Numbered from the stretch's first letter, positions 1-4,692 are shown. The stretch: DNA of 5,857 nt from a virus (IMGVR_UViG_2700989508_000011); one strand, 5' to 3'. Notes: generated by a model not told the origin, from the letters alone. Program-made: numbers and translations.

Positions 1-2089
1 CATAACTGTTAATTGCCCTGACTGTCAGGGTGTATTCCCCGAGCGGCAGACCACTGAAACGATGCTCTGTATCCGCAGTGATGGCGGTGGTCACCAGACG
101 GCTGTCTTCTCCGCTTCCGCTGGTCAGGCGCAGACTGAAGCGCACACCCTTCACCACCCGCGGCGTGTCCCATTTCGCCTGTGCCAGATACTGACCGTCA
201 GCTGCGCTCACCTCCACCGTCAGGTGCTGCACTGCCGGAGGGATGACGCTGTTCAGGGTGCCTGACTGCGGCTCAAAGCTGGCCCCGTTATCCACGATGG
301 CTTCCTTTTCCGGTACGTGCTGCACCGCCGTGATGGCAAAGGTGCCGTCCGTGTTTTCCCGGATGGAGACACAGCGGAACAGGCGACGACGCAGTGACTG
401 CAGGGAGAGTCCCCATACACCGTATGTCTCCACACCATCAGGCAGGGTGCTGACCTGTATCCGGTCCGGCGCGGGGTGTGCGGTGATGGCCACGCTCACC
501 GGCTTACCGCTGCCGTTAATCAGGTTCACCGTGGCGGCACCTGTCTCCGGCAGGGTCACCTCACGGTCCAGTGTCAGGGTGCGGCTGGCGGCATCAATGG
601 ACAGGACACGTCCGCCGGTCAGGGTCCCGGCATAGTCGTTATCACAGATTTCAATAATGTCACCGGGTGTGTGCCGCAGCCCCTGAGACCCGAGCGTGAA
701 ATCCACCGTCTGCGTTTCCAGCAGTCCGGTCTTTATCACCCACAGTCCGGCACGGTGGGCCTGACCGCGGCTGGTACAGCCGAACGCGTCCATCTTCAGC
801 AGGTTGCGTCCGTAGCGCAGTATGGCTTCCGGGTCTTCCACCAGTTCCGTGGAGGTCTGCCAGCCGTTCTGCGGGTCGGTGTAATTCACCTCCACCGCCG
901 TGTGCCGGTCCTTCAGGGCACTGAAGCTGTAGCGGAATCCCACGCCGTTATCATCCACCACCACATCGCTGTTGGTGTACGGCCACACCACATCCGACGG
1001 GCGGTCCTGAACGAACGTCAGCGTCTGGCCGTTCCATACCGGCATACAGCGCATCGCCGAGCAGAAATCACTGAGAACGTCCCACGCCTTACGCTGTTGT
1101 GACAGGTACGCATTAAAGGTCATCCGCGGCTCTGTGCCCCCGAAACCATCCGGGACCGTCTGGTCGCAGTACTGCCCGATGGCATACAGCGCCCACTTGT
1201 CAACATCCGCCGCCACCAGACGTTTTCCCATGCCGTAGCGCGGGTGAGTCAGCATGTCCCACAGGCACCAGGCCGGGTTGTTGCTGTATGCCGGTTTCAG
1301 GCTGCCGTCCCAGATGCCGCTGTACGTGCGTTTTTCCGGGTCATAGTTTGACGGTACCTGGATGATGCGACCGCGGATATGGTAGTTCACCGTCATCTGC
1401 TGACCGCCAAACTGCTCCGCATCCACCTGCAGCCCCACAATCGCCGTGTTCGGGTAGCACTGTTTCACATCGATGATTTCGGTGTATGACGACCAGAGCG
1501 TCTTATTCTGCAGCTGGTCCGAGGTGCTGTCCGCTGTCTCCCGGACCATCCGGATGTTAAAAGGACGGGGAGGCAGATTACCCAGAATCACCGACGCCAG
1601 AAACTGCGAGGTGGTCTTGCCGTTAATGGTGACATCCTTTTCCGTCACCCAGTTACCGTTACGCTGTAACTGAATCAGCAGTCGGACAGAAGAGGGATTA
1701 CGGTCGCCCTTTGAGGTGGTCTCCAACAGTGACTGCACCCCGAAGGTGACCCGCAGGCGGTCAATGTTCGCGGACGTAATGGTGCGCGTCACCGGCTTTG
1801 CCTTCGTCACTTCCACGCCCAGTGCGGTTTCAGATCCGGAGGACTCAAAGCCTTCCGGTGGTGTCTGCTCCTGCTCCCCGGCACGCCAGACCGCGGTCAC
1901 ACCGTGTATCACGGGATTGCCGTCCGTGTCCGTCAGTGGGGTTTTGTTCACCAGAATACTCTGCAGTCCCTTCACCGGACCTTCTATCGGTCCCTCACCA
2001 ATCGCATCAATCACGCTCATCATCTGCGTGGACTTAAGATTGTCCTTTGCCTCTACCGGCGTGTGCGCCTTGCCGCCACCTTTGCCCAT
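1..2089 (-). CDS. J: Tail tip / host-specificity protein J (central tail fibre), N-terminal ~696 codons; C-terminal receptor-binding part lies beyond the left edge
   Basis: Minus-strand ATG at 2089-2087 (plus 'cat'), preceded by a G-rich SD-like 'aagggtgagaca'. My translation starts MGKGGGKAHTPVEAKDNLKSTQMMSVIDAIGEGPIEGP..., which I recognise as the lambda gpJ N-terminus. At the window start the same frame reads ...RFSGLPLGEYTLTVRAINSY. The track shows no minus-strand ORF ending at 2089, consistent with an open frame to the window edge (the track omits ORFs whose stop lies outside the window). I did not translate every codon. Confidence 0.88.
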   Translation of the reverse strand, partial: MGKGGGKAHTPVEAKDNLKSTQMMSVIDAIGEGPIEGPVKGLQSILVNKTPLTDTDGNPVIHGVTAVWRAGEQEQTPPEGFESSGSETALGVEVTKAKPVTRTITSANIDRLRVTFGVQSLLETTSKGDRNPSSVRLLIQLQRNGNWVTEKDVTINGKTTSQFLASVILGNLPPRPFNIRMVRETADSTSDQLQNKTLWSSYTEIIDVKQCYPNTAIVGLQVDAEQFGGQQMTVNYHIRGRIIQVPSNYDPEKRTYSGIWDGSLKPAYSNNPAWCLWDMLTHPRYGMGKRLVAADVDKWALYAIGQYCDQTVPDGFGGTEPRMTFNAYLSQQRKAWDVLSDFCSAMRCMPVWNGQTLTFVQDRPSDVVWPYTNSDVVVDDNGVGFRYSFSALKDRHTAVEVNYTDPQNGWQTSTELVEDPEAILRYGRNLLKMDAFGCTSRGQAHRAGLWVIKTGLLETQTVDFTLGSQGLRHTPGDIIEICDNDYAGTLTGGRVLSIDAASRTLTLDREVTLPETGAATVNLINGSGKPVSVAITAHPAPDRIQVSTLPDGVETYGVWGLSLQSLRRRLFRCVSIRENTDGTFAITAVQHVPEKEAIVDNGASFEPQSGTLNSVIPPAVQHLTVEVSAADGQYLAQAKWDTPRVVKGVRFSLRLTSGSGEDSRLVTTAITADTEHRFSGLPLGEYTLTVRAINSY

Positions 2090-2121
2090 TGTCTCACCCT
2101 TTACTGTGATAACTGTTCACG

Positions 2122-2154
2122 CACAAAAACAACAGGCATCCCGGAGGATGCCTG
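2122..2154 (-). terminator. Rho-independent terminator-like hairpin on the minus strand, 33 bp upstream of the J start
   Basis: Perfect 9-bp GC-rich inverted repeat CAGGCATCC / GGATGCCTG (plus 2133-2154) with a 4-nt loop. On the minus strand it is followed directly by TTGTTTTTGTG (plus 2122-2132). Confidence 0.5.
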
Positions 2155-2192
2155 TATCATCACTGAATAAAAATTCTGAATATCTTCACATT

Positions 2193-2220
2193 TTCACAAA
2201 CTGACTGTGGCGCTAATAAT
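2193..2220 (+). promoter_or_regulatory. Candidate sigma70-like promoter on the plus strand (antisense to the tail operon)
   Basis: TTCACA (2193-2198; 5/6 to TTGACA), 16-bp spacer, AATAAT (2215-2220; 5/6 to TATAAT), in a ~29% GC stretch; predicted start near 2227. Hexamer match only, no experimental support. Confidence 0.25.
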
Positions 2221-2279
2221 TTCTCTGCGTTAATTTTTTTGTCGTGACATAAGAATAATTCTCTATAGTTAATCTTTGT
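2214..2279. repeat. Imperfect direct repeat, two ~26-bp copies with ~38-bp period, in the I-J intergenic island
   Basis: Copy A 2214-2240 'taataatttctctgcgttaattttttt'; copy B 2252-2279 'agaataattctctatagttaatctttgt'. Shared core AATAATT(T)CTCT...GTTAAT. Aligned by eye. Confidence 0.4.
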
Positions 2280-2286
2280 ATCTCTT

Positions 2287-2320
2287 CCCGCAGCTCCGCA
2301 ACTCTGCGGGATTTTTTTAT
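2287..2320 (+). terminator. Rho-independent terminator-like hairpin on the plus strand, abutting the 3' end of gene I
   Basis: Stem CCCGCAG (2287-2293) / CTGCGGG (2304-2310) with a 10-nt loop, followed by A-TTTTTTT-ATTCTTTTT (2311 onward). On the minus strand the same hairpin is followed by 'aagagataca', so it is terminator-like only for rightward transcription. Confidence 0.5.
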
Positions 2321-2325
2321 TCTTT

Positions 2326-3006
2326 TTACCCCTGCCGCCCGATAACCACCACCTTCCCGCCACCACCTTCATCACGGGTGCTGATGTCCTGGGAGATTCG
2401 CCGGGAGCCAACCAGCATTTCACCGTAAGGCACCGGCATCGGGTTCCCCTGGGCAATCATGTTGTCCAGTGACGAAAAATACGTGTTCTGTTTACCGTTA
2501 TCCGTACTTTTGTACTCCGGCGTCTTTGCCTTCGGGGCCAGCATCTGGGCCACACCGCCCAGTATCATGCTGGCCCCCAGTGAAAACAGCATCGTGGTGG
2601 CAGAAAAACCGCCGGCTGCCAGGGCTGAACCCCATAACGCCATCGTTGCGCCGGCGGTGAAGAAAGAGCCCACGATGGCTGCCGCCCCCAGCACAATCTG
2701 CAGTCCGCCTTTCCCTGCACCGGCCAGTCGCGGCACAATGTGGATGACCGTTCCCTCACCCAGCTGTTCGTGAAGACGGGCGTACACCGCCTCCGGTGCC
2801 GTGTCCTCACCGCGAATACGTATCTGGTACCAGCCTTCGTTCATCTGACGGCGGAATCCCGGCACCTGTAACGACAGCGCCCGGATGGCTTCCGCTGCCG
2901 TGTTCACGTACAGGCTGAGGCGGCGGCCAAATCGTTGCAAATCCCCGTGAAGGCAGATGCGTGCCAGTGGCGGTGACGCCAGGCTGAATGCGTTCGTCGT
3001 TGCCAT
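2326..3006 (-). CDS. I: Tail tip assembly protein I (lambda gpI family)
   Basis: 226-aa ORF starting MATTNAFSLASPPLARICLHGDLQRFGRR..., with a Gly/Ala-rich hydrophobic middle and C-terminal ...DEGGGGKVVVIGRQG. I recognise this as lambda gpI (223 aa). Stop TAA at 2328-2326. The start overlaps the 3' end of K by 103 nt in another frame, as I recall for lambda. Confidence 0.9.
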   Translation of the reverse strand: MATTNAFSLASPPLARICLHGDLQRFGRRLSLYVNTAAEAIRALSLQVPGFRRQMNEGWYQIRIRGEDTAPEAVYARLHEQLGEGTVIHIVPRLAGAGKGGLQIVLGAAAIVGSFFTAGATMALWGSALAAGGFSATTMLFSLGASMILGGVAQMLAPKAKTPEYKSTDNGKQNTYFSSLDNMIAQGNPMPVPYGEMLVGSRRISQDISTRDEGGGGKVVVIGRQG

Positions 3007-3652: not shown

Positions 3653-4351
3653 TTACTGCGAAAGTTTGTTAATGGAAAGGAAACCGCCAAAATTAGCCAC
3701 CATGCCGCGCATCTCACACCCGCGCATGCACTTGCTGCATCTGTCCTTACGGATATCCGTGGTGGGGTTGTCGAACTCATCCGCCACTGCCGGACCGTTA
3801 TACCCGCATTCATCAGAGCGGTAATCCCACATACAGGTGTTCGCCAGCATGATGCGACCGGGAAACAGCGCCCCGTCCGTCTCGGTCGGTGTGGCCAGCA
3901 CAAACGAGGCCGTCATGGCCGTCAGCGATGACATCTGCTCCACCACCCACCGGTCAGTCAGCTCCTGCTCCGGGTCGGCCTCCGGATTGCCTGCCACAAA
4001 GTTCACCGCATCCAGAAAACGCGCATACACCCGGCGGCGGACCACCGTGGCACCCACCAGGCTCTGCAAATCCTCCGCCATCCCGGTGACAAGACCGAAC
4101 AGATTGGACACCGTCAGCGACGGGCGGGCACTGCTGCCCTTTCCGTTCATCTCAAAGCCACTGCCCTCAATCGGGTACGCCTCATACTTACGCCCCTGCC
4201 AGGTGACCGGCTCCCCTTTTTCATTCAGCTCATTGCAGAAAAAATACCGCTCACCGCCCTGCACCGTCAGGTCGATTTCCCAGAGCACCACCCGCGGTGA
4301 CTGCTCTGACTTAACCGACTCGTTCAGGCTTTCTTCGCGAATATCCTGCAT
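3653..4351 (-). CDS. L: Tail tip protein L (lambda gpL family)
   Basis: 232-aa ORF, MQDIREESLNE...FGGFLSINKLSQ, the same length as lambda gpL and recognisably similar. C-terminal Cys cluster C-x8-C...C-x2-C-x3-C. Its ATG shares one nucleotide with the M stop (TGATG at 4353-4349). Confidence 0.92.
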   Translation of the reverse strand: MQDIREESLNESVKSEQSPRVVLWEIDLTVQGGERYFFCNELNEKGEPVTWQGRKYEAYPIEGSGFEMNGKGSSARPSLTVSNLFGLVTGMAEDLQSLVGATVVRRRVYARFLDAVNFVAGNPEADPEQELTDRWVVEQMSSLTAMTASFVLATPTETDGALFPGRIMLANTCMWDYRSDECGYNGPAVADEFDNPTTDIRKDRCSKCMRGCEMRGMVANFGGFLSINKLSQ

Positions 4352-4692
4352 CAGTTCACCACCTGCTCAATCGTACAACTGAAATCACTGTACCTGGCGT
4401 TATCTGTGACGCTCCACTCCCGGCACACCACCCTCACCGTCCGGTTATGTTTCGGCGGTCGCCACAAAAAGGCACGGTAACCACCATGCCAGGATAAAAA
4501 TTCATCCAGCCAGCGCCGGGTTGGTTCATCCGTCACCCGGAACACCGCCTGAAACGTCTTCAGTCTGGCATTAAGTCCCGTCGGTCGGCGCTGTTCATAA
4601 CCGTCACCAAACCGAACCCTCACCACCGACGGTTTCTCACTCACCTGCATCCCTTCACGCGGGACCAGATGCAGCGTTTTTATCTCAGCCAC
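4351..4692 (-). CDS. M: Tail tip protein M (lambda gpM family)
   Basis: 113-aa ORF containing VRFGDGYEQRRPTGLNARLKTF and ending ...FSCTIEQVVN, resembling lambda gpM (109 aa). GTG start at 4692-4690, preceded by a strong SD (GGAGGA, 7-nt spacing) inside the last codons of H; 8-nt overlap with the H stop. Confidence 0.88.
   Translation of the reverse strand: MAEIKTLHLVPREGMQVSEKPSVVRVRFGDGYEQRRPTGLNARLKTFQAVFRVTDEPTRRWLDEFLSWHGGYRAFLWRPPKHNRTVRVVCREWSVTDNARYSDFSCTIEQVVN

Follow-up and report, generated by a model that had tools for sequence, protein, structure and literature searches.

A hairpin before gene J as a probable intrinsic terminator at the I/J boundary of lambda-like late operons

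Late transcription in lambda begins at PR′, and the Q-modified RNA polymerase ignores intrinsic terminators. One of them, tR′, lies directly after the late promoter and gives an abundant short RNA in lysogens. The Q-modified polymerase is expected to read through tR′ and the other intrinsic terminators of the late transcript (PMC7547250; established lambda biology). In the gap between the tail genes I and J, hairpins precede J or a J-like gene in lambda and in other phages, and some of them are annotated as terminators in GenBank:

lambda (NC_001416), ~15463-15490: AAACCGCC-TGCG-GGCGGTTTTGTC, with its tail AAACCGCC-TGCG-GGCGGTTTTGTCATTT, 25 nt before the J ATG
mEp460 and PhiR49_1, I-J gap: lambda-type hairpin
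mEp213, I-J gap: AAAGGTGC-TTCG-GCACTTTTTTT
HK75, 14460-14483: GGCCACC-TTCG-GGTGGCTTTTTT, rho-independent terminator in GenBank
HK225, 15508-15532: AAGCCACC-TCAG-GGTGGCTTTTTTT, rho-independent terminator in GenBank
T1, 24972-24994: AACCCGC-CTTGC-GCGGGTTTTTTTT, rho-independent terminator in GenBank
Serratia phage Rovert, I-J gap: hairpin present, U-tract weak
Salmonella phage S107, I-J gap of 9 nt: no hairpin

We know of no experimental test of the function of the lambda I-J hairpin, and a literature search for experimental work on this terminator found nothing relevant. The HK225 record contains several internal terminators along the late operon, downstream of a gene for a Q-like antiterminator.

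Two sets of small RNAs are also relevant to this gap. PasB is an 83-nt Hfq-dependent small RNA of EPEC E2348/69, encoded on the minus strand of NC_011601.1 at 1466343-1466261; its northern probe is AATCCCGCAGTGATCGCGGAGCT (PMC8550237 Table S6). EcOnc22, EcOnc23 and EcOnc24 are Hfq-CRAC peaks of EHEC Sakai which run at ~85 nt on northern blots and are destabilised without Hfq (PMC4104026 Table S2). Expression and Hfq dependence have been shown for the E2348/69 and Sakai copies only (PMC8550237, PMC4104026).

Anatomy of the I-J spacer

The window is the whole 5,857-nt stretch of DNA analysed here, from the virus IMGVR_UViG_2700989508_000011, and the hairpin is read on its minus strand. The spacer and its flanking genes contain the following features:

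1-2089, minus strand: 5′ part of gene J (tail tip attachment protein), from translation; ATG at 2089-2087, running off the window
2090-2121, minus strand: J leader with a Shine-Dalgarno-like AAGGGTGAG (~2093-2101), from minus-strand reading
2131-2122, minus strand: U-rich tail TGTTTTTGTG, directly 3′ of the stem, from minus-strand reading and pattern scan
2132-2155, minus strand: probable terminator stem-loop, 10 bp with a 4-nt loop, ACAGGCATCC / TCCG / GGATGCCTGT
2155-2146, minus strand: 5′ arm ACAGGCATCC, from minus-strand reading and pattern scan
2145-2142, minus strand: loop TCCG, from minus-strand reading and pattern scan
2141-2132, minus strand: 3′ arm GGATGCCTGT, from minus-strand reading and pattern scan
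2160-2101, minus strand: 19-codon open reading frame spanning the hairpin, MIQASSGMPVVFVREQLSQ; ATG at 2160, TAA at 2103-2101
2172-2193, no strand assigned: putative CRP-like box AAATGTGA-AGATAT-TCAGAATT, read from the sequence
2193-2220, plus strand: predicted sigma-70 promoter of the small RNA, TTCACA-16-AATAAT, from a promoter scan
2227-2319, plus strand: small RNA gene of the PasB/EcOnc22-24 family, antisense to the late operon, from homology to PasB; 5′ end approximate
2295-2318, plus strand: predicted intrinsic terminator of the small RNA, ..CCGCAACTCTGCGGG + TTTTTTT, from pattern scan, folding and the PasB probe match
2326-2907, minus strand: gene I (tail assembly protein), mapped onto the window from 5434-6015 of L001; its stop codon ends at 2326

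A locus 100% identical to the window is present in E. coli CAU16175, in which RefSeq annotates J as gpJ and the genes follow in the order tape measure, M, L, K (C40 peptidase), I (tail assembly) and gpJ. The end of I at 2326 and the start of J at 2089 delimit a spacer of 236 nt, which is the sole sizeable intergenic gap of the tail-tip module; all genes of the window are tail genes. The hairpin (2155-2132) sits in this gap on the coding strand, that is, in the position of a pre-J terminator. Minus-strand reading, scanning and translation reproduced every coordinate that the initial annotation had given.

Both hallmarks of an intrinsic terminator are found here, a G+C-rich stem (typically ~5-14 bp) with a short loop and a U-tract abutting it, so the earlier description of an intrinsic terminator on the late-operon strand agrees with all sequence features. 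That description also spoke of a 'perfect 9-bp GC stem'. The stem has 10 pairs when the closing A-U is counted (alternatively, 9 pairs are followed by UUGUUUUUGUG), and 'GC' is loose, as 6 of the pairs are G-C. The U-tract UGUUUUUGUG begins at the stem base and has 7 U in 10 positions; its end lies 32 nt from the J ATG. RNA 3′ ends would be expected at ~2123-2126, within the U-tract. The efficiency of the tract may be modest, because a G interrupts it both in the window (UGUUUUUGUG) and in Sakai (UGUUUUCUGG). The folding energy of the hairpin is -19.3 kcal/mol (z = -3.8 against 200 dinucleotide shuffles), and the structure still forms when folded in a 146-nt context.

A terminator-like pattern is not rare by itself: a pattern scan of the window returned 8 such sites (one within gene M), where 4.7 were expected. 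Evidence for more than a chance pattern thus has to come from comparison, and function is not proven by the sequence alone. A further decent terminator-like hairpin was seen on the late strand at 4471-4490 (minus strand; GGCATGGT-GGTT-ACCGTGCC + TTTTTGTGGC). It falls within the coding sequence of the M-like gene (4351-4692) and is probably a chance match.

Conservation in relatives and equivalents in other phages

Of 5,426 complete E. coli genomes, 826 carry a 53-nt block comprising the hairpin, at 2,423 places in all (median 3 per genome), none of them annotated. Viral contigs were scanned twice, once anchored on the block beside the small-RNA promoter and once on the J start, which gave ~200 loci. 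Across 17 distinct variants, 99.4% of the cells are paired. At pair 21/30, five sequences have U-A in place of C-G and U-G intermediates are also seen among these variants; the E2348/69 copy carries the same compensatory change. Covariation within the family is nevertheless thin, with this one compensatory pair, since the variants are closely related (at least 85% identical, with few differing positions). Hairpin forms at the relatives' loci are:

ACAGGCATCC / TCCG / GGATGCCTGT, as in the window
GCAGGCACCC / GGTG / AGGTGCCTGT
ACAGGCACCC / TCCG / GGGTGCCTGT
GCAGGCACTC / TCCG / GGGTGCCTGT
ACAGGCATCC / CACG / GGGTGCCTGT

The tail among relatives reads TGTTTTTGTG, TGTTTTTTGG, CGTTTTTGGG or TGTTTTCTGG. 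The U-tract is kept across the 17 variants, whereas beyond its 3′ end at least three unrelated J leaders follow. Relatives which keep the hairpin have the J leader swapped for unrelated sequences, with ATG or GTG starts, and hairpin and U-tract are likewise found with several upstream cassettes. Conservation of stem and U-tract upstream of J in related prophages, which the initial annotation had proposed as a check, is borne out by this comparison.

About half of the viral contigs bearing the PasB promoter belong to a second class of loci ('class 2', e.g. CP086334) that is without the pre-J hairpin family. These loci carry a substitute, an unrelated and stronger hairpin, AAAACCCCGGTATC-TGCT-GATACCGGGGTTTCTCTTT, ~100 nt before J. 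In one class 2 contig (L064) the hairpin is precisely deleted, and two other contigs (L175 and L198) have other content upstream of J. The pre-J hairpin is therefore not indispensable, and S107 has none in its 9-nt gap. In E. coli EBJ003 (L123, 4170-4358) the class 2 hairpin looks bidirectional and folds at -32.5 kcal/mol in context. It is followed there by 100 nt more, holding an antisense promoter-like site, TTGCCA-18-TATCCT (4327-4298), from which a second short antisense RNA may arise.

Sense-strand bias was assessed on 74 distinct 130-nt pre-J sequences with a uniform script. A terminator-like hairpin was found on the sense strand in 66 and on the opposite strand in 2, against 10 of 1,480 shuffles; the 74 sequences are not mutually independent and include at least seven unrelated hairpin sequences.

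The lambda I-J hairpin resembles that of the window in its position after the I stop, its strand, its G+C-rich stem, its tetraloop and its U-rich tail. It differs in having an unrelated sequence and a shorter stem (8 bp; -13 to -16.5 kcal/mol), and the lambda gap measures only 60 nt and is without a small-RNA cassette. The annotated terminators of HK75, HK225 and T1 share position and orientation before a J-like gene; their sequences are different and they lie 9-50 nt from the start codon. A J-based scan of genome contigs added little diversity, returning mainly lambda-like contigs from unrelated assemblies. Low-coverage contigs from Neobacillus, Shewanella, Pseudomonas, Bradyrhizobium, Paenibacillus and other unrelated assemblies (L209-L233) have a J gene 79% identical to that of the window; some are ~48.4-48.5 kb long. 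These contigs look like lambda DNA used as sequencing control or present as contaminant.

The occurrence of equivalent hairpins before J in lambda and other island-free phages suggests that the pre-J hairpin is an ancestral terminator of the I/J boundary, and it speaks against the tie between hairpin and island that had been suggested at first. On the comparison of these layouts, the small-RNA cassette of this prophage lineage is an insertion between the I stop codon and the ancestral terminator.

The small RNA on the opposite strand

The published PasB coordinates map to the gpI-gpJ gap of the E2348/69 prophage PP6, antisense to the late genes, and this gap aligns with the spacer of the window at 89% identity. 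The small-RNA terminator of the window matches the PasB northern probe (AATCCCGCAG..GCGGAGCT). The 5′ end would be at ~2227 judged from the promoter and at ~2242 by alignment with the published EPEC 5′ end. The predicted -10 element, AATAAT in the window, is TATAAT in E2348/69 and in the class 2 loci.

EcOnc22, EcOnc23 and EcOnc24 map to the I-J gaps of the Sakai prophages Sp15, Sp14 and Sp11 (NC_002695.2; L201, L203, L204). Their published coordinates (Tree et al. 2014) refer to an older genome version and run ~128 bp below the current Sakai record in the 2.17-2.90 Mb region. This shift of +128 bp was derived from HnrS/EcOnc10, whose mazF-complementary motif is now at 2234390 versus a published peak at 2234239-2234287. 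With the shift applied, the EcOnc22-24 peaks lie over the PasB-like body and not over the hairpin, at 152-212 nt from the J start. A placement of the peaks on the reverse complement of the hairpin was rejected, as the overlap obtained from NC_002695.2 at face value is removed by the HnrS calibration. By position and sequence, EcOnc22/23/24 are the Sakai counterparts of PasB. This link is made neither in PMC8550237 nor in a 2026 preprint on Pas distribution.

The plus strand of the window spacer shows what characterises this family: the I-J site, the antisense orientation, a predicted promoter and terminator of its own, and similarity to PasB. PasB and EcOnc22-24 occupy the same I-J spacer, and the homologous RNA of the window has an equivalent promoter and terminator. 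Unlike the pre-J hairpin, they are encoded on the other strand, and each ends at a terminator of its own; the hairpin is no part of them. Compared with E2348/69 PasB, the 5′ half of the window RNA differs substantially, so its targets may differ as well. Trans pairing predicted between the small RNA and the J leader was no better than in shuffled controls, 88 of 300 shuffles equalling it. A permissive Rfam scan of the whole window gave no match in the spacer and two chance snoRNA-like matches within J. The anti-sRNAs AgvB and AsxR were considered for the spacer RNA and rejected, since they are located at the PR′ moron site and not in the I-J gap.

The CRP-like box lies immediately upstream of the small-RNA promoter and 17 nt from the hairpin. 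Its half-sites, TGTGA and TCAGA, are invariant across cassettes, while the 6-nt spacer between them varies (AGATAT, AGAATT, AGAGTT, AGAAAT). The distance from the box to the -10 element (24 nt) is constant even where the sequence between differs. The centre of the box is at about -44.5 from the predicted start, a non-canonical position for CRP. Reported PasB levels are lower in DMEM with glucose than in LB, a difference that would be consistent with control by CRP.

Other cassettes were observed in the same place. In L128, L142, L149 and L159, up to ~300 nt upstream of J, there is a different antisense cassette with the terminator ...CTCCCG...CGGGAGCGTTTTTT, and in L128 and L142 the block of CRP-like box and promoter is in tandem duplicate. 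In L033 (570-750) the CRP-like box and the hairpin are kept and the PasB body and -10 region are unrelated sequence, probably through an insertion or replacement disrupting the small-RNA gene.

The arrangement of these cassettes gives the I-J gap the appearance of a docking site at which small-RNA modules can be exchanged. A more far-reaching proposal is that the pre-J terminator forms one half of this modular site, with antisense cassettes (each bringing its CRP-like box, promoter and terminator) inserting between the I stop and the terminator, and that the hairpin acts beyond insulation. We consider this improbable. If it were true, the hairpin may end an RNA of late sense with complementarity to the small RNA, by which PasB would be titrated once the prophage is induced; alternatively, it could be a protective 5′ stem-loop of the J mRNA after cleavage of the duplex of late mRNA and small RNA. 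Either route would couple the level of the small RNA to the supply of the tail-tip protein.

Possible roles of the pre-J hairpin

We consider it likely, from sequence comparison, that the pre-J hairpin is a conserved intrinsic (rho-independent) terminator of the I/J boundary in the late operons of lambda-like siphophages. During lytic growth, lambda biology leads one to expect that the Q-modified, terminator-resistant RNA polymerase would read through the hairpin, which could then act at the RNA level only, stabilising the tail-assembly segment upstream by blocking 3′ exonucleases. An unmodified polymerase that moves in the late sense in a lysogen or a defective prophage would stop at the hairpin, before J. 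Such a stop would keep J and the genes beyond it silent while the small RNA is transcribed in the opposite direction from its own promoter.

Like tR′, the hairpin would be an intrinsic terminator on the late transcript that Q is expected to override. It differs in lying ~15 kb farther downstream, and no known lysogen promoter feeds it. The terminator is expected to be ignored by the Q-modified polymerase and so has no obvious role in transcription during the lytic cycle. In a lysogen there is little known transcription for it to stop, since the island upstream of it has no predicted late-sense promoter. We give about an even chance to insulation, that is, termination of unmodified polymerase, as the selected function. 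Insulation of J from non-antiterminated transcription, suggested from the outset, remains the most reasonable role.

It is rather unlikely that the hairpin was selected as an element of RNA stability or processing only, either protecting the 3′ end of the upstream (V...I) late mRNA or serving as a 5′ stem-loop which stabilises the J mRNA after cleavage of the small-RNA duplex. Q antitermination is expected to override termination in the only condition of strong operon transcription (established lambda biology), the annotators of HK225 mark like hairpins behind the genes for the major capsid and major tail proteins, where they are usually taken to stabilise abundant messages, and immediately before the hairpin the late transcript shows full complementarity to the antisense small RNA. 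The sense-strand bias of the pre-J sequences (66/74 versus 2/74) is compatible with both activities. What separates them is the U-run, which abuts the stem in every independent version: termination needs it and exonuclease protection does not, and on this ground we favour termination as what was selected. RNA stabilisation may be an additional role or an alternative to it.

The hairpin could also end a separate short late-sense RNA, transcribed from a promoter in the island or derived from the 3′UTR of gene I and possibly pairing with or sponging the PasB-family RNA. Prophage small RNAs of EHEC often come in convergent or overlapping pairs (PMC4104026), any such RNA would have complementarity to the promoter and 5′ region of PasB, and conservation is high in the block that separates the hairpin from the small-RNA promoter. 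This block (2166-2226) is, however, accounted for by the opposite-strand promoter and the CRP-like box. No late-sense sigma-70-like promoter is predicted in the spacers of the window, E2348/69 or Sakai, and the best candidates of a hand search reached only 7 of 12 matches. Hfq-CRAC in Sakai gives only the antisense EcOnc22-24 in the I-J gaps (PMC4104026), and the part of the EPEC RIL-seq tables available to us has no late-sense entry for the gap. Moreover, lambda has such a hairpin in a 60-nt gap, in which there is no room for an RNA gene. We regard a late-sense RNA as highly unlikely. The initial annotation had offered the hairpin as the 3′ end of an RNA from the island; with no late-sense promoter predicted, and with the island RNA belonging to the PasB family on the opposite strand and having its own terminator, this suggestion does not hold. 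HnrS (EcOnc10-12), a 66-nt prophage small RNA, was tried as the late-sense RNA and rejected: its mazF-complementary motif is absent from the window and its Sakai copy lies near the lysis genes.

Equally slight is the probability that the hairpin is functionless, conserved merely through the recent divergence of the prophages or as a patch of homology for module recombination. The high identity of the variants and their few differing positions would fit such a view, as would the location of the hairpin precisely where the mosaic is joined, with exchangeable cassettes on its upstream side and exchangeable J leaders on the other, and the commonness of terminator-like patterns in the window. Against it, at least six unrelated sequences of the same anatomy occupy the same site in other phage lineages, and the class 2 loci have replaced the hairpin with a second, unrelated one. 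Shared ancestry does not explain this recurrence together with the strand bias.

The 19-codon frame raises the question of a leader peptide. It stops 11 nt short of the J ATG, and neither in the window nor in any relative compared is it preceded by a Shine-Dalgarno sequence. Its length among relatives is 14, 19, 21, 28, 38, 41, 51 or 53 codons, with C-termini frameshifted by single-base indels just past the U-tract. The residue changes within the stem arms, S to P together with M to V, correspond to the two partners of the compensatory base pair; the substitutions thus preserve RNA pairing, which indicates a constraint on the RNA and not on the peptide. We judge the frame to be fortuitous and non-coding, as had been suspected from the window alone. 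An attenuator in which its translation across the hairpin would modulate termination before J is extremely unlikely: the frame does span the stem-loop, and nearly all close variants have its ATG, but the ATG is lost in L126 (AAC instead), the 146-nt context fold contains no competing antiterminator helix with the hairpin arms, and the hairpins of lambda, HK75, HK225 and T1 are without such a frame.

Returning to the terminator, the sequence comparison makes the pre-J hairpin family an unannotated but widespread member of a class of terminators that is already annotated. The hairpin matters little alone; its presence in ~15% of complete E. coli genomes extends the annotated internal terminators of late operons. 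For annotation, the spacer of these STEC/EPEC-type prophages follows a fixed order of I stop, antisense PasB-family cassette, CRP-like box, terminator and J ribosome-binding site, and the hairpin should be annotated neither as an attenuator nor as belonging to the small RNA. The by-products may be more useful than the hairpin itself, namely the equivalence of PasB and EcOnc22-24, the CRP-like box and the modular, sometimes tandem cassettes.

A last observation concerns T1 (L248, 397-468), in which TGTATAAT, resembling an extended -10, comes directly behind the annotated terminator that ends the I-like gene's stretch. The junction may therefore separate two transcription units in this virulent phage.
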